64,000 bases of DNA from Schmidtea polychroa. Taxonomy: Eukaryota. A program made the position numbers and the translations under genes. The stretch covers positions 35,280,001-35,344,000 of the forward strand of contig CM097885.1 in assembly GCA_044892525.1 (NCBI GenBank). Direction: 5' to 3'. This document shows, piece after piece, positions 1 to 64,000 of the stretch. The first letter of the stretch is position 1. Each line of letters opens with the position of its first letter. Below the pieces are notes generated by a model. That model made no database searches, was not told the origin of the DNA, and saw nothing but the letters and a program-made list of their open reading frames with translations.

Positions 1-312
1 AGAGCAATGCTGATCTAATATTTGATTCGGAATATGATATGTTTTATCATAATTACGGATAATAAAGATACCGCTACATGTTTTCATAGCATTCCTTTTG
101 AAATCAATCTTACATTGACTATAAAATGGGAATGTATTGTACACTAATGTAAAATCTTGCAGTGCAACTTCCCAGTCACCATTTAAAGAAATCGGATTCT
201 GGAGATTGACCATGAATTTACTGGCTTGATTATCTGGATGAATAAGCGGGCAACTATTGCTTGGTAAAATAGTATAAAAATTCACTTTACTAGATCCTTT
301 TCTGATATACAT
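1..312 (-). CDS. Polinton minor capsid protein (penton), N-terminal part; open to window edge
   Basis: Manual translation NFYTILPSNSCPLIHPDNQASKFMVNLQNPISLNGDWEVALQDF matches the Polinton penton N-terminal signature; paralogous to 10326..11030. Confidence 0.85.
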   Translation of the reverse strand, partial: MYIRKGSSKVNFYTILPSNSCPLIHPDNQASKFMVNLQNPISLNGDWEVALQDFTLVYNTFPFYSQCKIDFKRNAMKTCSGIFIIRNYDKTYHIPNQILDQHCS

Positions 313-910
313 GATGGGTTTTGATAACTATGCCATTTAACATAATATTGTTTATCCTTGCCGACCTTTTTAGTTTTCAATATCTTTTGAATTCTAAATA
401 CTTTTGGGGGAGGAATAACTTGTAATTCTTGCTCATAAAACTTTCCTTGTACAATATTGTTATCATAATCACTGATGACATACATTACAGGATTCTGACT
501 AGTATTTATTTTTGAAATTACAAAGACTTCATCACTCCAATTTGTATCGAAATTTTTAATAAATGGTGATGCACTAATTTTACTAATTCTAACATGGTCA
601 CCGACTTTATATTTAGGTTTTGCAATTTTTACAGATTTCTTAGAAGTCAATGATGTTTTTGATGTAATATCAACCGGTCTCAATCCATTCAGTCCTCGAT
701 GTGATGAATGATTATAACTTGTTATTATTTTCGGTAAAGCATTTACCCATTTTTTATTACCTTGATGCACGAATAATTTCTTTAATCTCTCTCTCAATGT
801 TCTGTTAAATCTTTCAACGTGGGCAGCTTTGTATTGAGAATGTACCGAGTAATGGTTTATTTTCAATTTATTGAGGATTTCCTTGACTTTACTGTTGTAG
901 AATTCTTTAC

Positions 911-914
911 CTAA

Positions 915-982
<68 letters not shown>
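911..982 (-). other. 72-nt GT-AG intron made of (ATT)n inside the integrase
   Basis: TTAG|GTATTATT...ATTTTAG|GTAAAGAA; removal converts the poly-Ile run into the canonical QTDLGKEF catalytic motif. Confidence 0.85.
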
Positions 983-1572
983 CTAAATCCGTTTGCAAGT
1001 TATTAGGATGTCCATCTTTAAATAAATCATTAACAGCTTTAGACATTTCATCTGCAGATTTTGCCTTGACGGGTATTGCTCTGGCAAACTGACTGAATAC
1101 ATCAATACATGTTAAAATATATTTATACCCATTGTTAATTTTCGAATAGGGTATCATCTCCATCAAATCCATTTGCCATAAATCATGGTAAAATATTAGT
1201 TGTCTCGCGTCTGTGTGCGCTTTTTTCTTTGTTTTGGTTGTGTGCGCACACAGACGCGTAAAATTAAAATGTAGAAATTTTTAATCCGATCCTCGCGTCT
1301 GTGTGCGCTTTTCTTTTCTTTGTGTTTGGCTGTGTGCACACACAGACGCGAGCAAGAGGTAAGTTGTTAATCTTTTAGATTTTAGATTTTTATCGATTTT
1401 GAATTTGTTAATTAGAGTTGGAATTTTATCGACGTTTGGAATGAATGATGATTAATTTGAATACATGTGGCTATTGCAATAAAGAGAGTTGTTAAAGATG
1501 GCAATGGAACTCGAGTTGTTGAACTCTTATGGATTTGGTTTTTCGTTTTGTATTATGAGCTTCCGATTAAAG

Positions 1573-1776
1573 ATGGCAACATCTAAATATAACGGGGGAT
1601 TGATGGTTCTCGGTGATTTAGTGGCAAGGTTGAATAGAACCCGCAGCAAAATGGAAATAGAAACTATTTGTAAAGACGATGTTATCAGATCTATCAAATC
1701 TATTAAAATTCTGGGTAATGGATTCTCTCTAATCACATTTTCTCGAGACCGGCAATTAGTTCAATCTGTACCTGAG
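1573..1776 (+). pseudogene. SNF8: ESCRT-II subunit SNF8/Vps22 fragment
   Basis: NGGLMVLGDL...DDVIRSIKSIKILGNGF...LVQSVPE resembles the SNF8 segment NGGLITLEEL...DDLIRAIKKLKALGTGF...LIQSVP. Confidence 0.8.
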
Positions 1777-1833
1777 CAAAATGGCCGAATCGATATTGTT
1801 TTGTGTTCAGAAAGGAATAATATGAGATCAAAT

Positions 1834-2110
1834 TTATGTGTAGCTACACAAAGACAGGTTCCAGATAAAATGATTGAGAAGAGTTCAGCTACAAGATTGT
1901 TTAATATTACTGAAAGTACTGGAAGTGTTATGACTGGTATGATCCCTGATTATCGATCTCAAGTATGTCGTGCACAAATGGAAGCAGCTCGATTTAGATA
2001 TAAACATGGATATGAAATGCCTTGCGACATAATAAGTCGTTCTGTTGCGGATATTAAGCAGTTTTCTACCCAATCAACCGAGATGCGACCATTAGGTTGT
2101 TCAATGATGA
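1834..2110 (+). pseudogene. PSMA6: Proteasome subunit alpha-6 fragment
   Basis: TQRQVPDKM..TRLFNITE..VMTGM..RSQV.RAQMEAA.FRYKHGYEMP.D..EMRPLGC is the PSMA6 pattern. Confidence 0.88.
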
Positions 2111-2215
2111 CATTATCTCCTGGTATGGACACGGAAAAACTGTTATTATTCAGAAATAAATTGATTATGTGTTATTATGAATTTGAAAATGAAGAAATCA
2201 TTTATTCAATATGTT

Positions 2216-2416
2216 TTATAAAATCTTGTTGGGAATCGTTTCTGCATTGGTTTGTTCAAACTGTGGGTTTCTTTTTTCGAATTCGGAACTCTTTTGTTTA
2301 ATTTTGCCACTCCACCGAAACCTGCTTCGTCTTCGGGGTTCGTCCAAATCTTCTCCATTACAACAAGAAGATTTAATATTAAATTTAATGTCTGGTAATG
2401 AAGGATTAGCACCCAT
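2216..2416 (-). CDS. Small ORF with N-myristoylation motif (MGANPS), overlapping the integrase start
   Basis: MGxxxS motif; starts 4 nt after the pX-like stop. Confidence 0.4.
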   Translation of the reverse strand: MGANPSLPDIKFNIKSSCCNGEDLDEPRRRSRFRWSGKIKQKSSEFEKRNPQFEQTNAETIPNKIL

Positions 2417-2419
2417 TGT

Positions 2420-2914
2420 TTATGATCGACTTCCTATTATTCCTCCTAATAATGATATTGCTAAAGGTATCAATGCACCGATAAATCCCCCTTGTTGTTT
2501 ATATATAATTTTCCTCATTTGTTGACAATTTTTATTATTTACTAATGATAGCAAAGGTTTCCTATGTTTACTCAATAATTGCTTTTTAGATTTACTGATT
2601 TTAATCTTGCCTTTGACTACTTTAAGTATAATATCGAGTAAATCATCGACAACATAATTTGGAAAAGATTGCAAAATACTGTTTCTTTTCATACTTGGTG
2701 CCTTTAACAATGTATTGAAAAACGGGAAACTCCGATGATTTTTAACAACTTTTAGTTTCTTAGTGGTTTTACTTTGAGGTTTAGGTTTAGGATTTTTCGA
2801 AATAAGATTCATTGCAGGAAAGTTTTCTGTAATAAGTTCTTTAGATGGAGTATAACTAGCTGTTGGTGGAACTTTGGGTTGTTTTTTAATAGATATCCTT
2901 GTTTTTGAAAACAT
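2420..2914 (-). CDS. Basic core / membrane-active protein (adenovirus pX-like, 'GasderminX'-type adintovirus gene)
   Basis: Lys-rich; C-terminal KQQGGFIGALIPLAISLLGG with an adenain-like GG/F site and amphipathic tail; adjacent to the ATPase. Confidence 0.7.
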   Translation of the reverse strand: MFSKTRISIKKQPKVPPTASYTPSKELITENFPAMNLISKNPKPKPQSKTTKKLKVVKNHRSFPFFNTLLKAPSMKRNSILQSFPNYVVDDLLDIILKVVKGKIKISKSKKQLLSKHRKPLLSLVNNKNCQQMRKIIYKQQGGFIGALIPLAISLLGGIIGSRS

Positions 2915-2927
2915 TACTTATATGTTT

Positions 2928-3566
2928 TCAAATTTGTTTTGAACTTTGTTTATAAACCATGGCACCTTTTGGGTTGAAAATATCTGTTTTTACTCGTATA
3001 TCATCAGGACATTGTTGTGTGAAATCGAGAAATATATACCCATGAGGTATTTTCGTAGCATCTTGAAATGCATTGATAAGAAAATTACGGTTATTAGGGT
3101 ATGCTTGTCGTCCAAGAAAATCAATGACAGTTGCATCTCTAGGATTCTTGAAAATAACTAGATATTGTACATTTAAATTACGTGTTCGATGTGCACCACC
3201 TTGATGAAATAGATTTTGTGTTATGAAAATAACTGTTACACCAACATGTCTGCTGATTTTTGTGAATAAATTATTAAAATCCTTTTCTTTCTTGGCTTCT
3301 TGATACAAATCATCGATAATGATGACATCATCTTTCTTCAAACGACTTGACCAGTTTTTATCAAAACCCTTTACTATTTTCATGTTTTTCAATTGACAGA
3401 AACTTGATTGCGTCAATCCATGTTCTTCATCGGCGCCCCTATGCCAATAAATATTGTTGAATTTTGTTTTGAACAAATTTGATTTTAGTAATTTACAAAC
3501 AAATAATGTTTTTCCGCTACCACTTGGACCAACGATTTGGTATACTGCATCATTTCGTAATTCCAT
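2928..3566 (-). CDS. A32/FtsK-like DNA packaging ATPase
   Basis: Walker A GPSGSGKT, Walker B IIIDD, SRH, ITQN, FKNPRD motifs; intact 212 aa. Confidence 0.95.
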   Translation of the reverse strand: MELRNDAVYQIVGPSGSGKTLFVCKLLKSNLFKTKFNNIYWHRGADEEHGLTQSSFCQLKNMKIVKGFDKNWSSRLKKDDVIIIDDLYQEAKKEKDFNNLFTKISRHVGVTVIFITQNLFHQGGAHRTRNLNVQYLVIFKNPRDATVIDFLGRQAYPNNRNFLINAFQDATKIPHGYIFLDFTQQCPDDIRVKTDIFNPKGAMVYKQSSKQI

Positions 3567-3672
3567 TTTTTAAATTTAAACTATATAATTATTGTTTATA
3601 TTGATAATTTAAATGAACTCCTTTTTAAAATAACTATATATATAACAGAGTTTTTATAATTATTTCATTAAA

Positions 3673-4126
3673 ATCCCTTCAAATATAAATTACAGGGCAA
3701 AAGCTGATGTATCAAAAATGATATTTCCAATGTGGAAACCACAACAACTCATCAATAGAAGTAAAAAATATCCAATAATATATTTCAAAACTGGTAAATG
3801 TAGAATTATGGGATGTAAGGAAATAATCAAAGCTAGTGAATATAATGTTTATGATTTAGAAATACAATCGATAACCGTAACTTCCGATATAGGTTTTTCT
3901 TGTAATTTAAATAAATTGGCTAAATTAATACCATGCTTTTACGAACCAGAATTATTTTCAGCTTTGAGATTATATAAAATATAACCCTATATTCGCTAGC
4001 GGTAAGATAGTAATTCTTGGAATAAAAAATATTGATTACAAATGTATAGTTGATAATATCATATCTGAAATTAAATCAATAATTGAAGGAAATGAATTTT
4101 TAGATTTTTTATTATCACTTAATTAA
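3673..4126 (+). pseudogene. TATA-binding protein (TBP)-like homologue; frameshift/small deletion near 3985 and no in-frame ATG at the predicted start
   Basis: SNINY (cf. QNIV), IIYFKTGKCRIMGCK (repeat 1), IQSITVTSDIGF..LNKLA, FYEPELFSAL, then FASGKIVILG from 3992 in another frame (repeat 2). Confidence 0.8.
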
Positions 4127-4247
4127 TTATTTATCATTGCAAATTCAATGCAATTGAAATGCATGATTCTGATTGGTCGAAATCTAATTGGCTGATGATT
4201 ATTTTTAACAAAATGTTTTCGGTTTAGTTGTCATTTATTCAACAAAA

Positions 4248-4326
4248 ATGTACAACATACAAAGTTCCGCAATCATCTCAATGAAAGAGAATGCAAATTA
4301 TGGTAATTTCAAATATTTATTATTAC

Positions 4327-4420
<94 letters not shown>

Positions 4421-4729
4421 GATGAGTATCAATCAATTATCCTGCAAAGATTATGCTTCTATTATCCAGAATTAAATGAAATTCTACAAGATAGAGATCA
4501 AGCTATCATTTCGGATTTGGTATACAACCAAACACGAATCTGGATATTCGATATAATAAACACCTTTCTATGGGATATCAAAATAGGAAGGGTGATGAAA
4601 GAAATGAAACCAGAGGTTCCTTGCATTTTCGGATGTAGCTGTTGCAATTTCCGTTATCAACAATATGTTGAATGGTGTTTGGTGAAGACTCTGAGAAATC
4701 ACCACTCGAGTCAGATTGTATCAAAATAA
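4248..4729 (+). CDS. Unknown Polinton cargo protein with Cys cluster (CIFGCSCC); probable (TA)n intron ~4303-4419
   Basis: ATG 4248, GT at 4303, TTAG at 4416-4419; exon 2 is open from ~4421 to 4729, but the exon phase join is uncertain; CCAAT boxes upstream. Confidence 0.5.
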
Positions 4730-4993
4730 ATTTTTATGTTGAATTGTTTTGTTTTTGTAAATCGAAATAATAGAAATAGAAATAATAATAGTAATAGAAA
4801 TAGTAATAATATAAGTAATAATAGTAATATTAGAAATAATAATAAAAAACAATATTTATAATAAAAACATTAATGCAACATTAATGCAAATAACATGCTA
4901 TTTAAACAAAGACATGCAGCAATCTGATTGGTTGATAAACAATAGTCATAGGTATAAAAACCCTGTACCATTTCATTTTAATCATAATTCACG

Positions 4994-5413
4994 ATGACAA
5001 AGAAAATTTCAAGCACTGAAAAACCAAAAGTTGTTCCAGAACTTGTACAACCTGTTCAAATGTTCCACAACTACAAAATGTATTTTTTAAAAGAAGAAAT
5101 CAATATGAAATTGGTGTCACCGATCAAGCTAATTCCTACCCAATTTCAATTTTTTTCCAGCACACTTTCAATGATAGATATTACATCTATTGATGAGGTT
5201 TTCAAACGGTTGAATACGAATCTATCCTGTAATCAACATGCATTTTTCAACAACCGATATGCAAGATTTTATGATTCCTTTGATGAAATCAGCTTCAAAG
5301 AAAACGAAAATTGGTATATAACAATTGCAATCCAAGGATATAAAGTTGATAATAATGATGTGTATTCTCCAATTTGGAAAATTATGTCTGCTAGACTTTC
5401 ACAAATATTTTAA
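4994..5413 (+). CDS. Possible OB-fold single-stranded DNA-binding protein
   Basis: Intact 139 aa with CCAAT (4927) and TATAAAA (~4953) upstream. C-terminal ITIAIQGY....YSPIWKIM resembles the terminal strands of T7 gp2.5-like viral SSBs (inference). Confidence 0.45.
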   Translation: MTKKISSTEKPKVVPELVQPVQMFHNYKMYFLKEEINMKLVSPIKLIPTQFQFFSSTLSMIDITSIDEVFKRLNTNLSCNQHAFFNNRYARFYDSFDEISFKENENWYITIAIQGYKVDNNDVYSPIWKIMSARLSQIF

Positions 5414-5546
5414 TGTTATATTTAATAAATGTATTAGTCATATTTGTTTTTTCTCTTTATTAATTGCAACATTAATGCAAATGACATGCAAATTTAACAA
5501 AGAAAATCTATAAACAAACTTATAATATAGTTTTAAAGTGTTATTA

Positions 5547-5899
5547 ATGACTACAGAAAAAGGTTAACATGATTAATTAATTTCCAAATTATTTATTATT
5601 TAGAATTATTAATCAACTTTTTGTTGGCAAAATTAGCAGAAATATCTGGTGTAAAAATTGAGGATGTATTATCTGTTACAAATGCATTAAATATCGGCTG
5701 GGTAGTTGAGAGTCAAGATTCAGGATTTGACGATCAGGAAGAAACCGATACTCAAGAAATTGATGACGAAATCTATGAACCTATAGATGAACCTATAGAG
5801 GAACCTAAAGATAATATTACGAATGATTGTATTGATCATGTCGTTGAAAATATAATGAAATGTGGAGATGACGACTGCGAATGTGTTAATAAATTTTAG
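5547..5899 (+). CDS. Acidic small cargo protein, two exons (intron 5563-5603)
   Basis: ATG ACT ACA GAA AAA G|gt...tag|AA TTA joins in frame with ORF 5621; D/E-rich, DSGFD motif, C-terminal Cys residues. Confidence 0.7.
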
Positions 5900-5959
5900 T
5901 TAATTATTGTTTGTAAATTTATTTAAAATTTTATTTAAAAATCAAACAAAATAACTATA

Positions 5960-6480
5960 TTAATTTTTATTTAAAAATCGGGATAAAACATACAAAATAG
6001 CAACACCTGTTGCAAGTTTTATATAGTTTTTAAATTTCTTTTTCTGTTCATCTATTTCCTTCGCATTTCTGGCGAGTTGATTCAGTACGCCCCATCCGCC
6101 ATTGGCTTCAATCCATGGTTGAAACTTTGACTTGATTATCTAGAAAATAAATATTAATAAAATATAGATTATAAAAGTATTACTTCTTGAGACCACTGAT
6201 AATAATGTTCCGAGTCCCATAAACTTTTTTCGATTATGACCTTCATATAAGCGAACCCTACTAGTATTCGGGTCCACTTCATCTCATCGTCACATAGGCA
6301 GTTAAAAATCCTATGAAAATATAATTTTTTCGTTTCGAGACAATCGGAATTGAGCACATCCTCATAATCGATATGATTTCCTTCGATAATCTTTTCGGTC
6401 CGGTCCACCAGGAAACTCAGGCTTTCCACAATCTTCTTGTTGATAACTTCGCTTAAAAGATTTTCCATAAAATGAGACAT
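5960..6480 (-). CDS. Bcl-2 family protein, 158 aa, two exons (6480-6184 and 6139-5960), tail-anchored
   Basis: BH1-like DDEMKWTRILVGFAY. After a 44-nt GT-AG intron comes BH2 PWIEANGGW, then TM YIKLATGVAILYVLSRF and LNKN*. No stops or frameshifts. Confidence 0.85.
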
Positions 6481-6708
6481 TTCTACAATAATTTAAAATA
6501 TGATGTTTTATTTATACTAATACCGTATGATTTTGATTGGTTGATAGACTATAAATGTAAAAGAAAGGTTTTGATTTGATACACCATGAAAACTATATTC
6601 ATATTGCTAATTATTATAACGAGTGTGTGCTAACACAATACTATATATTTTATAATATTCGACTATGTTTTTAGTTAACCATGATTTGTGATAGAAATTT
6701 GAAATTAT

Positions 6709-6804
<96 letters not shown>

Positions 6805-6839
6805 TATCAATAGATAGATCTTATACTAGACTTTAAGAT

Positions 6840-7444
6840 GAGCTATCGATGAGAACACTAACTTGTTGCATGTGTGGACACTAATAATATTTTTACACAT
6901 TGTGTGTGACCATAGGGGGACAGAATATCTTGTCGGATAGACTATATATACAAAGTATGTGCAATAATTTTATTTTGTCAACTTAATCGTCAAAATAAGT
7001 TTTTTAAAATTTAAAATTTAAAATACCGCAACGTAATATATTCAATAATTAAAATATAATTAAAATTTAAAATACCGCAACGTAATATATTTAATAATTA
7101 AAATATAATTAAAATTTAAAATACCGCAACGTAATATATTTAATAATTAAAATATAATTAAATTTTAAAATACCGCAACGTAATATATTTTAAAAGTATG
7201 ATGTGTCTTTGTTCAAAATTTTCCCCTTTGTTATGCAATATGTCTTTGTTACGTAATATGTCTTTGTTTCAATGACCTTGATGAGTCATATGTCCTTGTT
7301 ACGTAATTTTTAAAATAAAATAAAAAAAAATTTTAAAAAAATTAAAAACCCCCTCCCCGGGGTGGAGGTATGACGTCATATGTCTTTGTGACGTCATCGA
7401 TGGCGTCATATGTCTTTGTTCCCGGCTCCACACATTACCCTACT
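6840..7444. repeat. Polinton terminal/subterminal region (probable TIR)
   Basis: Colinear homology with ~30745-31302 and ~18100-18258; TATGTCTTTGTT repeats, GC block, TGACGTCA at 7371 and 7389. Confidence 0.75.
7008..7193. repeat. 49-bp tandem repeat (~3.7 copies) containing AAAATACCGCAACGTAAT
   Basis: CCG core recurs at 7026, 7075, 7124 and 7173. Confidence 0.9.
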
Positions 7445-9730
7445 GCTAACAAACGCAATAGAAATGAAAAACCCTTCACCAAGGCAGATTAGACAAATCA
7501 ATTTCATTTCACAATTCAACTGCACAATAAACTACGCAGCAGGGAAATCAAACATAGCAGCAGATGCTCTATCCAGAATTGAAAGTGACATAAACGCTCT
7601 AGAATTCGGAGAAATAATCGAATCGGATCAAATCAAATCCAGACAAACCGATACATTAAGCAAACTGCCTACTAAAAACAGCCTTAAACTACAGGAACTC
7701 GACGGAATATGGCACGATGTCTCCAACGAAAGCAACAAACGAATCCTACTACCCGAAGAACTCCGACAAGACTGCATAAAAAAGATACATGCTATCAATC
7801 ATCCGGGAAACAAAAAAACATTCGAGTTAATACATAACAAATATGTATGGCCTCACATGCGGGAAGACATCAAGAATTACGTCAAAAGTTGCCACAGCTG
7901 TCAATTAAATAAAACAACAAAAAAACCCAAAACACAAAAAGTAAACTTCCCAAGCAGTGAAGCGTTTGAAACAATACACACAGACGTAGTAGGACCACTA
8001 CTACCAAACGACACTATAAATATCTACTAACAATTATAGACAGAAAAACCAATTGGTTCGAAGCGATACCAATAAAAGAAATTACAGCAAAAAATATCTG
8101 CGAAATGATCGAACTAAACTGGATAGCTCGTTACGGCCAACCGAAAACAATCATAACTGATCAAGGCAGACAATTCGAATCAGAAATGTTCAAAATAATG
8201 TGCAATAAATACAATATCAAAAAAAACAGCTTACAACCCACAATCAAATGGGAAAATTGAACGGTTTCACAGAACATTAAAAGAAAGCATCAGGACAAAA
8301 GCCAATGACCAAAACTGGTTAATCCAACTTCCAACAATATTAATCGGACTAAGAAATAGCCCAAACTCAACAGATAATGAAAGTCCAGCATACAAAATTT
8401 TCGGAAAAGCAACAAACTTGCCATCACTTAAATCAGATACAAACAAAACCACCGAAAACAGCAAACAAATAACAAACAAAAATAGCGAAACCACCGAACA
8501 GAAACCAAAAGGAATTTTAAAAAGAAGACCGGACTCCGAATTAGACGGAAAAATAGTATTAACAACAGAGTTCATCTTAATAAAAAAACCATTCACAAAA
8601 GGATTCGAATCCAAATACGAGGGTCCATTCAAACTCCTAGAAATTAACAAAAACGTCGCTACAATAATCCAAAACAACAACAAAATAAAAATAAACATAA
8701 GACGAATAAAACCCTATCACCAAAACGAAAACCCACAAAACAACCGACCAGAAAACAAAACACAAACACAAACGAAAACACAATCAATTCACAAAAGAAT
8801 CACATTTAACACCAAAAACTTAATCAAACTATATTTGATAAAGATACAATAATCACACCCCTATACAAAAAACGATACAGTGATTGTCTTAATTAAAACA
8901 CCAACAAAAAAAACACACGCACAAACAATGCCAATTGTACAGTTTTTTATTAATATTCTTGTAAATATAGAGTAAATCGTAAGTTTTTGTTGTATACAGC
9001 TTGTAAATACAAAGAAACAGAAACAAAATACATAAAAACATAAAAAAAGGTTATTGAATGTAATTTTTTTTATGTTACTTTTTATTGATTCATGTTAACC
9101 TCCGGTTTTAAAGGGGGAAGTTATGTAATGTAAAGCGATTTTTATTAATATTTTAGTGTTCACAATTAGGAATTGTGAATACTAAAATATAAAATGCCAC
9201 CATCTGTGGAAATCCAGATTTTTAAAAAAAAACTATATAGCGATAATTTACTATAGGAAATAAAAAAATCGAAAGAAATTGAATGATTAATTATATGTCT
9301 TCAAAACTTCTGTTTGTAAGTTCAAATGCTAAACAAATTTGATAAAGAAACTGAATTAAGAAATTGAATTAAGAAACTGAATTAAGAAATTGAATTAAGA
9401 AACTGAATTAAGAAATTGAATTAAGAAACTGAATTAAGAAATTGAATTAAGGAACTGAATTAAGAAATTGAATTAAGAAACTGAATTAAGAAATCGAATT
9501 AAGAAACTGAATTGAGAAATTGAATTAAGCTGAATTGATCCAAGTAGTATTATTTTTATTTTGTTCAGTAAACGTGTGATATTATTTGAATATTGTTGAA
9601 TATTAATTTTGTTTTTTATTTATTATTGTTACATCACATAGCACAGCCTGCACCCCGATTGTCCCGCCACAAGTTTTAACGGAGACTCTTTCGGGCCCAT
9701 CAATTTTCTTATTAAACATACAACTTAATA
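7445..9730 (+). mobile_element. Gypsy LTR retrotransposon 3' half (end of RNase H, integrase, PPT, 3' LTR)
   Basis: RQIRQINFISQF..GKSNIAADALSR, H-H-C-C zinc domain, IHTDVVGPL, TDQGRQFES, KIERFHRTLK, YEGPF; PPT AAAGGGGGAAG at 9110-9120; LTR end approximate. Confidence 0.9.
9347..9535. repeat. 13-bp tandem repeat GAAA(C/T)TGAATTAA in the LTR, alternating variants
   Basis: About 14 contiguous units. Confidence 0.9.
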
Positions 9731-19736: not shown

Positions 19737-23611
<3,875 letters not shown>

Positions 23612-60600: not shown

Positions 60601-63600
60601 GACAGTGCTCCAGATAATGGATCTTCTGGTTACTTTTTTCATATGGATTGGAGCGAGATCATTTATAAAGGATTAAAATAATGTGATGTCATTGAGTTGG
60701 GTTGCACTCTCATTTTTCTTTACATTCTTGTTATGATTGAGGTTATTATAATTACTATCTTAATTCTATATATTTTTAGCCCCTTATTTTTTATCATTAT
60801 CCTTACCATTATAAGTATTATCATTACGATTATCTTATTATATATTGAAATTAAATACGAAAGATTGATTATAAATGCAAATTATTTACATTGCAAATGA
60901 AATTTTAAGGGAATTTATTTTAGGCAAACGAAAGGAATATCATATTAATGGAATTACATAAATATAAAAAAATCATAATAATTTATGATTTTTTATAATA
61001 AAAAAAGATTTCAAAATACATTTATGTTGAACAAATGGAGCAAAGAGGCATTTTGAAGCATCAAATACAAACAAATTATAAACAATTAATGATAAAAACA
61101 AGACATGCCATATGTTAGAAGCTATAACATTTAATTCTTCTGTCATCAAAATAAATTACTAAGACTATTAAATCCAAAATTATATTTCATTAAATCTGAT
61201 TATATAAACAAATATTCTTGGGACATTTTCTAAATTTTAATTTCAACCAAATATCAACATACCATCGCATTCATACTTGAATTTCAATTTTATTAAAAAT
61301 TATTTTATTTTAAAATTTCAATTATCATTTCAATTTTAATATCTTAAAATAATTTAAGTTTCAATTAAAATTTTACAAATTTTAATCATGAACTAATTTA
61401 ATTTAGTATTTTAATTTTAACTCCTCACACCATACATAATGAGAATAAAGAAATAATAGAAAACTTAGAAATAATGGATTTATAAGGAAATGCGAATCCC
61501 CTCGGAATTCACCGATTGTCTGTGTTGCGAAGAAACGTACAAATAATGTTTGAATGTGCTTAGACTTTAGATTTTTAGTGTTTTAATTATCGTGAATAAT
61601 TTGATACGTTTGTGTGTGTTATTATACGTCTGAAAGATGTCTCATATTTCATGTTTATTATTACTTAATAGTCTTGAACTCTAAAGTGATAAATACATAA
61701 ACTGTTCTCATAAAATAGATTTTAGACTTTGAATTATGAAACACTTACCTTTAATGAAAATCATTTACAAATAATTGGAAATTCATAATAAAAACGACGG
61801 TTTCATTTCATTAAAAATATTATTAACATTAAAAAATCAAAAATGATTTCAAAAATTTTTTAACTTACCATCTGATTTTAATCTTTGTTCTTGTCTCACA
61901 TTCGATTTCAAACGGAAATACAATGGAAATCAATTCGCTGGTATTCTTTAGGTTGTTATTATCATTTTTGTAATTAGTGCTGAATAAATAAAGTGAAACC
62001 TCTAATTCTAGATCAATAAAAGGAAATTGGATATAATTTCCATGAGAAACACATTGACAATGTCATTACACATGCTATTATAAGTTAGAAAATCAATTAA
62101 ATTTAAAGATCTATCCAAACTATAAAATCGAATAACAATATAATAGATGGTGAATAAAATCAATATCACAGACAAACTTATGCTATTTTCAGAGAAATAA
62201 ATAGAAAATCTGCAGTGAATAAGATAAACAATTCAATCACAGAGCAATATAAAGAAAACCAAAAATTTGAAAAAATCGAAATTTGGTATAGAAAAAATTT
62301 TCGTAATTTAAAGTTGAGAAAAATTGTTTTCTTACAAATAATGTTCATTTTCCACAGATAAATAACATTCCAATTCTGGACTTTATCGATTGACAACTTT
62401 TACATATTCCTTTTCGATACAGTTTTTTTTCAATTTTGCATTTCCTACAAACTTGCCTTGTGTTTCTGTCATCGATTATCTTTTTATGTGGTGAACCCGA
62501 CTGTCGAGCTTCTTCGTTGTGGGTGGTCTGTTTTTGAAGTGTTTTGTTTCGGTCATTTTCCAGTCGCGAATAATTTCCAGTATTTTGTGGATATCTATTC
62601 GACGGGCTTTGTCTATTATCATGTGTATCGGTAATTTTTTTACTATAACATTTTTCACATTTTCTTTGATGCTTTTCACATTCAGTACAATTCCATTGAT
62701 TATTTCTATTTGGAACATTTTCTATCCTTTTTTCATCCCTAATCAAATCTTCTTCAGTATTATGTTTCTTTGTTTTTGGTTCTTTTGGAACATTTTCATT
62801 GTCATTAGAATGCATTCGTTTAATAGGTTGATTATTCTTATTAGGAATTTGTGGATTTCTATTCGATGGGCTTTGTCTATTATCATGTTTATCGGTAATG
62901 TTTTTACTAGAACATTTTTCACATTTTCTTTGATGCTTTTCACATTCAGTACAATTCCATTGATTATTTCTATTTGGAACATTTTCTATCCTTTTTTCAT
63001 CCCTAATCAAATCTTTTTCAGTATTATGTTTCTTTGTTTTTGGTTCTTTTGGAACATTTTCAGTGTCATTAGAATGTATTCGTTTAAAAGGTTGATTATT
63101 CTCATTAGGAATGTGTGAATAATTTCTAGTTTTAGGATTAATCTTATTAGGAATTTGTGGATTTCTATTCGATGGACTATTATCATTTTTATTGGCGTTT
63201 CTTTTCCCAGAACAATTTTCACATTTCTTTTGAAGTGTAGCACATTCATTACATTCCCATTGACTTTTGACCAACTCTTTTTCAGTACGGTGTTTATTTT
63301 TAAATTCGTTTACATATTTCCTTGGAACATAACAAGCATTACAATTTGCTGAACTACTTTCATTTACAAGACTACATTTGGAACATATCCAAGTATCGAT
63401 AAGTGACTTGGAACCTCTGGGAATTAATTCTTCATTCTCATGGTTTGAAAAACTATTCTCGTCCGAAGAAACATCAAAGTTGTTGTCTTTTTCACATTTC
63501 AAATTATTCTCTTCATTATTGTTAAATATATTTTCATCGATGACATTATTTTCTATGGGGACTGGAACTGAAACTTCATATAAAGTGAAACATAATTCGC

Positions 63601-63739
63601 AATTTTTTGAACTAATTTCGTTGGAAAAACTACATGCCTTACATACCCAAGTATCTTTTGTGTTTTTAATTAAATCATCAGACAAATCATTATTATACTC
63701 AACTGATTCATCACCATCAGAGAAATTTGTCTCGACCAT
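57663..63739 (-). CDS. Multi-exon host gene with RanBP2/NZF-type zinc fingers (large exon 63739-~62345; further putative exons near 61980-61870, 58250-58153 and 58108-57680)
   Basis: WVCKACSFSN..CELC and WICSKCSLVN..CNAC, plus three W-x-C-x2-C-x6-C-x2-C repeats; downstream GT-AG-bounded open segments. Confidence 0.7.
59035..59268. mobile_element. piggyBac-type MITE
   Basis: TTAA|CCCTTT...AAAGGG|TTAA. Confidence 0.8.
59886..60481 (-). other. GC-elevated orphan coding-like segment (two overlapping ORFs, one frameshift)
   Basis: ORFs 60161-60481 and 59886-60200; no family recognised. Confidence 0.35.
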
Positions 63740-64000
63740 TAAATCCTGAATTTAATTTTATTATTTACACAATATATTATGAGCTTCAACATTTACATCA
63801 GACATTAAATATTAAGTTAGTGCAGCAAAATACCAAATTTCATACGGACTTCTCATTTCACTTATGATCAATGTTCCCACTAAGCTGACATGCTAAGGTC
63901 AAAAAAGAAAATTTAGGCGCAAATGGACTGCAAAAAACTAATGAGATCATAAGGTTAGATCGTAGGCAATGCTTGGACTCATAATTTGATCCTAGGATAT

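Follow-up and report, generated by a model that had tools for sequence, protein, structure and literature searches.

A modular accessory arm with two promoter classes in a Polinton family of Schmidtea polychroa

What are the small genes at the end of a Polinton (Maverick) for? The question is raised by a locus of Schmidtea polychroa (genome 781 Mb, AT-rich, four large contigs) within a stretch of 64 kb, here called the window (assembly GCA_044892525.1, contig CM097885.1, positions 35,280,001 to 35,344,000, forward strand). Positions 2216-7444 of the window are the terminal arm of a defective Polinton, the full element being 12.3 kb, and an earlier note on this DNA had read the arm as a host-manipulation module analogous to adenovirus E1/E4. 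The finding bears on whether the Polintons of animals live as viruses or as transposons, and on how they time their genes. We conclude that the accessory arm is real, functional, and modular. In the reading that we favor, with a probability of about 60%, it comprises a constant set of genes for a TATA-binding protein (TBP)-like protein, a protein binding single-stranded DNA (SSB), and an acidic protein, together with exchangeable flanking genes, and works as a two-step expression program, not as a copy of E1/E4.

The element has AG.../...CT inverted repeats, a 6-bp target duplication, an integrase, a PolB remnant, an A32-type ATPase, and an adenain-type protease, which are features of Polinton membership (adintovirus type). 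The family's core genes (ATPase, a basic open reading frame [ORF], integrase-chromodomain, putative penton, a small core ORF, putative hexon, and protease) follow one another without gaps on the minus strand, as the note had said of a tightly packed leftward block. The protease (Peptidase_C5, E=7e-5) and the putative penton and hexon genes lie upstream of the window; the latter two found no match in Pfam or PDB sequence searches and are named putatively from their size, place, and conservation in loci outside this genome.

Gene order and exchange in the accessory arm

Five spaced small genes (TBP-like, Cys-cluster, SSB, acidic, and Bcl-2-like) occupy positions 3673-6480, where the note had placed them (3.6-6.5 kb); the TBP-like, SSB, and Bcl-2-like genes are identified by a profile, a predicted fold, and weak matches, respectively. 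At least 150 close genomic copies exist of both the Bcl-2 exon and the packaging ATPase (A32/FtsK type, open frame 2928-3566, minus strand; Pox_A32 E=1.8e-7). Linkage was followed in 40 of 150 listed Bcl-2 copies (the 20 best after the window's own and 20 taken from the list's lower end), in 40 of 150 ATPase copies, and, for a third TBP type, in 20 of 150 copies. Around Bcl-2, the series ATPase-TBP-Cys-SSB-acidic-Bcl-2 was complete and in order in 27/40, and a core gene lay within 10 kb in 35/40 (exceptions L028, L032, L037, L050, and L058). Around the ATPase, TBP adjoined in all 40 copies, and SSB and the acidic gene were each present in 39, while Cys was found in 14 and Bcl-2 in 12; 24 of the 40, forming subfamily C, had TBP-SSB-acidic alone. 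The link to Polinton cores and the gene order thus hold, beyond what chance would give, but the content varies, and a fixed five-gene cassette does not survive these counts. In six of six C copies traced 20 kb past the ATPase, no match to Cys, Bcl-2, RING, or the sixth gene described below was found.

Subfamily D (20 copies) has an ATPase that is 88-92% identical beside a TBP that is only ~55% identical. Its acidic gene is inverted in 19/20, its SSB gene is spliced (E=1e-14), and its Cys slot holds a distant Cys relative (hhalign E=1.5e-4, probability 52%). No whole Bcl-2 was detected in these 20 copies, which gave one weak 29-codon match, and the Bcl-2 position is taken by a gene with a C-terminal RING (zf-C3HC4_3, E=7e-8) whose top PDB matches are the RINGs of cIAP and XIAP. 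An inhibitor of apoptosis protein (IAP) combines BIR and RING domains, and no BIR match was found in the 185-residue frame. The RING gene is whole in 2/20 copies, reduced to its last codons in 16/20, and absent from 2/20. In part of the subfamily B copies, a relative with 72% identity follows PolB.

Median divergence within groups was 0.2-0.6% for C, 0.3% for D, 1.0-1.6% for A, and 1.6-2.2% for B, in samples that are anchor-biased and of which A and C alone were drawn from the same list. The least diverged groups therefore lack Bcl-2, since C and D have the lowest divergence and neither has a whole copy; they are the youngest subfamilies and amplified without it. Alleles have also been reshuffled among subfamilies, and accessory genes have been gained and lost. 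In the window copy itself, TBP and Cys are type A alleles, 96-98% identical in DNA to L094, whereas Bcl-2 is a type B allele, 98% identical to L026 and 70-77% to L094; L029, L034, and L039 have this mix too. Gene order beside the ATPase is fixed, TBP-SSB-acidic being the constant set and the flanking genes exchangeable. Copies that differ naturally in having or lacking Bcl-2 and Cys can reveal which accessory genes amplification needs.

Outside this genome, a Polinton core gene was present in 12 of 26 loci with the same TBP type and in one more among the next five, and a clear SSB neighbor was present in at least 6 of the 26, with varying gene order. Profiles of the Cys, acidic, and Bcl-2 proteins gave nothing credible against these 26 loci, most of them on contigs below 5 kb (one match, E=0.002, fell inside an integrase). 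Two outside TBP-bearing Polintons, L125 and L126, have ORFs whose motifs, judged by eye, resemble those of a parvovirus-type phospholipase A2, a KilA-N domain, and an exonuclease.

The small genes and the selection acting on them

The short TBP-like gene (3673-4126, plus strand) stands head-to-head with the ATPase and is broken in the window copy, with its start codon missing at 3673 and a frameshift near 3985; its first fragment still matches PF00352 (E=1.2e-6). Other copies have a single frame of ~150-165 codons, which is at least 85% open in 61 of the 72 copies matched. An unbroken copy matches PF00352 with E=5e-15, its C-terminal repeat scoring 55-62 bits and resembling archaeal and eukaryotic TBPs. 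The N-terminal 60 residues, apparently a shortened and altered repeat, fall below scoring, and an FxxGKxxxxG strand motif is visible there by eye. The relatives form a distinct family of 55 short proteins with 35-96% identity; a set of viral contigs yielded two weak TBP matches, neither of them accompanied by Polinton genes.

The SSB gene (4994-5413, plus strand, open frame) is identified by its predicted OB fold, of the type of T7 gp2.5 and African swine fever virus (ASFV) CP312R. Pfam and Atlas sequence searches were blank, and Foldseek by itself reached E=0.13. There were 46 matches among cluster representatives, and a model built from 41 of them (predicted local distance difference test [pLDDT] 92) had as its four top matches among 48,161 chains ASFV CP312R (Z 7.2, root-mean-square deviation [rmsd] 4.7 Å, 125 aligned), DUF2815 (Z 7.0), T7 gp2.5 (Z 6.8, rmsd 3.2 Å, 104 aligned), and Enc34 SSB (Z 6.7); overall, fold matches had rmsd 2.8-4.7 Å over 101-125 residues. 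While the OB fold is shared with the T7, Enc34, and ASFV proteins, identity to them is below 10%, and the 139-residue Polinton SSB has no acidic tail.

Three of the five small genes (Cys, acidic, and Bcl-2-like) contain introns. The acidic gene (5547-5899, plus strand, two exons, predicted intron 5563-5603) encodes a protein with a helical start, an acidic middle of variable length, and a C-terminal CxxH/CxxxxCxC cluster. A poly(A) loose end at 6162 stands behind two plus-strand AATAAA signals (single contigs; region 5899-6162), and it suggests that the acidic transcript overlaps Bcl-2 exon 2 in antisense. The Cys gene (4248-4729, plus strand) has two exons separated by a predicted intron (4303-4421) with a (TA)n run, and CCAAT boxes upstream; its first exon of 19 codons is conserved together with the predicted intron, and the motif CSCC is invariant. 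Both this (TA)n microsatellite and an (AAT)n microsatellite in the predicted integrase intron (908-980) vary in length among copies. The Cys protein is modeled as all-helical (pLDDT 93) and found no family in Pfam, the ESM Atlas (best 0.87), Foldseek against PDB and viral sets (no E<1), or a wide structure comparison (best Z 5.0), searches that rule out no particular fold. Common ancestry of the Cys and acidic proteins was considered and rejected (hhalign E=0.83).

The Bcl-2-like gene (5960-6480, minus strand) has two exons around a 44-nt GT-AG intron (6140-6183), which is GT-AG in all 52 copies matched and was skipped in one contig of one of four runs, all four only guessed to be RNA, with a matching loose end in a second run. 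Its product has a BH1-like KWTR, a BH2 WIEANGGW, and a hydrophobic tail. Searched separately, exon 1 found Bcl-2A1 best (E=0.017) and exon 2 Bcl-xL (E=0.057), both below cut-off, and the sole find for the exon in a large protein collection was one near-identical protein. It is probably a Bcl-2 protein, as weak sequence matches in the right order and the splicing point to. A poly(T) loose end at 6480 (single contig) is unexplained. Facing away from Bcl-2 is the stub of a sixth gene (6586-6640, plus strand), with an early stop and a deletion; elsewhere this gene, matched in 29/80 copies, has a signal-peptide-like start, a coiled coil, and a hydrophobic tail, like a secreted-type product. Past the opposite end of the window's element, at a distance of ~2.4 kb, Bcl-2 exon 1 and the sixth gene occur once more on a detached fragment (L021:1969-2739).

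Bcl-2 sequences are widespread in this genome: many matches lie inside open frames that are 1,000-3,058 codons long, in agreement with what is published on Burro retroelements, and seven Bcl-2 genes form a tandem cluster (C4, 89.9-90.8 Mb). According to the report on them (PMC6431247), Burro long terminal repeat (LTR) retrotransposons of planarians carry BCL2-like, BIR, and RING-type cargo; there the cargo consists of domains of a retroelement polyprotein, whereas here it consists of separate genes of a DNA element.

Selection was estimated from pairwise ratios of nonsynonymous to synonymous divergence (dN/dS) for pairs with dS >0.05, which are non-independent and, for anchor genes, biased low. 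Values were 0.17-0.20 for TBP, 0.14-0.27 for Cys, 0.14-0.16 for SSB, 0.34-0.35 for the acidic gene, and 0.11-0.18 and 0.26-0.36 for Bcl-2 exons 1 and 2, compared with 0.02-0.30 for core genes. Near-identical pairs rose to 0.35-1.25, the pattern expected post-insertion. All five small genes are under purifying selection between subfamilies (0.11-0.36). These values contradict the idea that the small genes are bits of host sequence, picked up passively and of no use to the element, for which spliceosomal introns and the host gene pieces in one insertion of the window copy might speak. The TBP relatives are moreover a separate short family, the SSB fold is of viral type, and the Bcl-2-like protein, compared with other Bcl-2 loci, is just 25-29% identical to the two that scored best (over ~50 residues); we regard passive capture as very improbable.

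A different possibility is that the genes serve intracellular copy-and-paste only: SSB and TBP would help the element to replicate and be expressed in stem or germ cells, Bcl-2 would preserve the carrier cell, and no particle would exit. The family has thousands of candidate copies in the genome, from very young bursts, and its genes contain introns and microsatellites; BCL2 and BIR domains occur also in the planarian retrotransposons cited above (PMC6431247), and Polintons of a planarian are targets of Piwi-interacting RNA (piRNA), silenced and de-repressed during differentiation (PMC8532177). Against this, purifying selection (0.02-0.35) acts on the putative capsid genes and on the ATPase, which share a dedicated promoter box, and allele swaps across deep divergence (TBP dS ~1.9 beside ATPase dS ≤0.5) fit co-replication as free DNA. 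We consider a purely intracellular life somewhat unlikely; it is compatible with the two-step program as regards the switch.

Two promoter classes and a possible two-step program

The arm combines two promoter classes. The first is marked by TATAAAC 22-65 nt ahead of the gene, a placement found in 1.3% of random windows. It stands ahead of the basic ORF (2948-2954, minus strand, distance 40 nt; 65/69 copies), the ATPase (3594-3600, minus strand, 34 nt; 69/70), the acidic gene (5509-5515, plus strand, 38 nt; 65/67), and the hexon-like gene (25/25), and it is nearly missing in the tested range ahead of SSB (1/69), Bcl-2 (0/51), TBP (0/71), and Cys (0/36). In subfamily D, where the acidic gene is inverted and 34% identical, the box is kept in 18/18, and ATAAAC lies within 120 nt ahead of the ATPase in 7/7 outside TBP-bearing loci checked. 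The second class has CCAAT boxes (background 16%), ahead of SSB in 69/69 copies, Cys in 36/36, and Bcl-2 in 46/51. In the window copy, a reverse CCAAT box and TATAAAA (4926-4960, plus strand) precede the SSB gene, and the upstream region shared by Bcl-2 and the sixth gene (6516-6556) has a CCAAT box with TATA on either side. The TBP gene has a TA-rich box alone. Early and late would be suitable labels for the two classes, judging from the motifs and the genes behind them.

These observations suggest the following program. Host RNA polymerase II and host factors would first read the CCAAT/TATA promoters of SSB, Bcl-2, and Cys, and the TA-rich promoter of TBP. SSB would then coat the strand displaced by protein-primed PolB, and the mini-TBP would bind TATAAAC and turn on the ATPase, capsid, core, and acidic genes, with the acidic protein acting as an assembly or late regulatory factor. 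By analogy with TBP structures, the altered N-terminal TBP repeat would read the 3' half of the box. The Bcl-2-like or RING protein may delay host-cell death and would be dispensable or borrowed from other copies. More broadly, and with somewhat less than an even chance, this could be a Polinton lineage with its own minimal late transcription (a 150-residue TBP reading TATAAAC in the host nucleus) and a swappable terminal cell-death slot, which holds Bcl-2, an IAP-type RING ligase, or no gene at all and undergoes reshuffling among co-resident subfamilies, as for a population of replicating endogenous viruses. The family offers hundreds of young copies and a defined candidate switch, consisting of one protein and one 7-nt box.

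Several points weigh against this program. (i) It is deduced from motifs, from which binding, timing, and promoter activity are inferred, and copies of the same subfamily are non-independent, so the counts overstate the evidence. (ii) TATAAAC was found ahead of the penton-like gene in 0/26 copies within the tested range and ahead of the small core ORF in just 17/28, and the SSB gene of subfamily D is without the CCAAT box (0/20). (iii) All SSB Z-scores are below 8, graded middling by the structure-comparison tool, and the Cys and acidic proteins are without a recognized relative or fold. (iv) No Bcl-2 match reaches the cut-off of Pfam, the best having E=7e-4, and in BH1 the sequence KWTR stands in place of NWGR, with the glycine replaced; for these reasons the anti-apoptotic direction of the protein is an assumption.

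Could the arm instead be a unitary E1/E4-like early region, reprogramming the host cell cycle, transcription, and apoptosis for a full infectious cycle, with the Cys and acidic proteins as E1A-like oncoids? Its terminal location, a Bcl-2-like gene and an IAP-type RING in one slot, and three genes with CCAAT promoters are consistent with this, and the acidic protein has a relaxed MxCxD in 66/66 copies and CK2 sites in 64/66. Adenovirus E1A, E1B, and E4 too are small spliced non-structural genes near the genome end and include a Bcl-2 homologue, E1B-19K. However, the E1A-type LxCxE motif occurs in 0/32 Cys and 0/66 acidic exon-2 frames and the CR1 motif in none, the acidic gene bears the late-type box of virion genes, and the least diverged subfamily has neither Cys nor Bcl-2. 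Adenovirus is not known to encode a TBP homologue, its DNA-binding protein is an E2 gene product of a different fold, and neither the TBP nor the OB-fold SSB has a known E1/E4 counterpart. An E1/E4-like region is, in our view, quite unlikely. What stands of the analogy is the terminal place and Bcl-2, and not the gene content. The proposed host-manipulation module does cover transcription, replication, and probably apoptosis under purifying selection, but judged by motif it is no early region pure and simple, since the box of virion genes also stands ahead of the acidic gene. The true viral life cycle that the note had suggested stays a conjecture, given that the youngest subfamilies amplified without Bcl-2 and that planarian LTR retrotransposons have Bcl-2-like cargo too.

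Among published systems, the adintoviruses (Polintons; Starrett et al. 2021, PMC8502044) are alike in integrase, PolB, packaging ATPase, adenain, terminal repeats, and 6-bp target duplication, and that paper reports Bcl2 and IAP homologues, orphan accessory genes, and LxCxE oncoids, so Bcl-2/IAP cargo of adintoviruses is already known and its report is also a point for an E1/E4-like region. Their oncoids lie upstream of PolB and have LxCxE, whereas the genes described here are found past the ATPase and do not have the motif. In the available parts of that paper, TBP appears just in one legend, which concerns viruses whose hosts are not animals, and one supplement file, seen in part, holds no match for TBP or SSB. 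An acidic frame without a Pfam match lies between protease and PolB in two loci (L187:5108-5353 and L201:8839-9141), the position reported for adintovirus oncoids.

The two-step program resembles late transcription in beta- and gammaherpesviruses, in which, according to PMC7498053 and PMC6541308, an ORF24-type TBP mimic goes with a variant TATA box in front of structural genes. In those viruses the mimic is large and belongs to a complex of six proteins, whereas the mini-TBP here has ~150 residues and would pair with the box. We found no publication joining Polinton, TBP, and Bcl-2 in literature coverage that excluded subscription journals, Repbase, and the other Starrett et al. supplements, and searches of Polinton with TATA-binding protein, late promoter, and SSB/OB fold gave none concerning animal Polintons by title or start of abstract. 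Cargo genes of nematode Mavericks are mentioned in a meeting report (PMC10680173).

The window copy and its surroundings

The element starts with AGTAG 4,885 nt upstream of the window and ends with CTACT at 7444, flanked on both sides by the 6-bp target-site duplication GCTAAC (here 7445-7450, plus strand) within a Gypsy pol gene. Its terminal inverted repeat (6737-7444, last letters CTACT) is 83.5% identical to the opposite end over 655 nt, and 97% over the last 36 nt. The window copy is a dead mosaic, unable to replicate alone, because most of PolB has been lost, the integrase is split by a 1-kb insertion, and the penton-like and hexon-like frames are split. Of PolB only a C-terminal remnant is left, the rest being deleted; long PolB matches were found in 3/6 subfamily C and 3/4 subfamily B copies tracked, the probe being a long frame for a polymerase, taken from an outside locus and assigned to the PolB family.

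The broken integrase-chromodomain gene (282-2358, minus strand) has rve and Chromo matches below cut-off and 34-48% identity to integrases of outside loci. The insertion that splits it (1187-2201) has a 7-bp duplication, AAATCAT, is missing from 80 other copies searched, begins on the left with two short hairpin repeats, and contains one 267-codon frame in which pieces of a gene of the EAP30/Vps36 family and of a proteasome subunit are fused; it looks like a gene-capturing non-autonomous transposon. The basic ORF (2420-2914, minus strand), a putative virion core protein with a hydrophobic GGFIGALIP tail, is conserved in outside Polintons and gave no match in database searches; we take it to be comparable to adenovirus pX. 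No tRNA was found in a search over window positions 1-9000.

Farther along, broken PolB frames of a second Polinton-type copy (20055-23297) lie within nested inverted repeats (15.8-20.3 kb and 16.1/28.3 kb), and terminal-repeat-like sequence occurs near 18.1, 19.6, and 30.9-31.2 kb. A 468-codon frame (62345-63751, minus strand) contains several zinc-finger-like repeats of the form W-x-C-xx-C, as well as a tandem duplication of 264 nt. Elsewhere in the genome, pairs of ATPase matches in opposite orientation lie 4-7 kb apart (C3:98537804/98544844, C2:147742082/147746112, and C2:149732325/149736859), which suggests fold-back (palindromic) copies.

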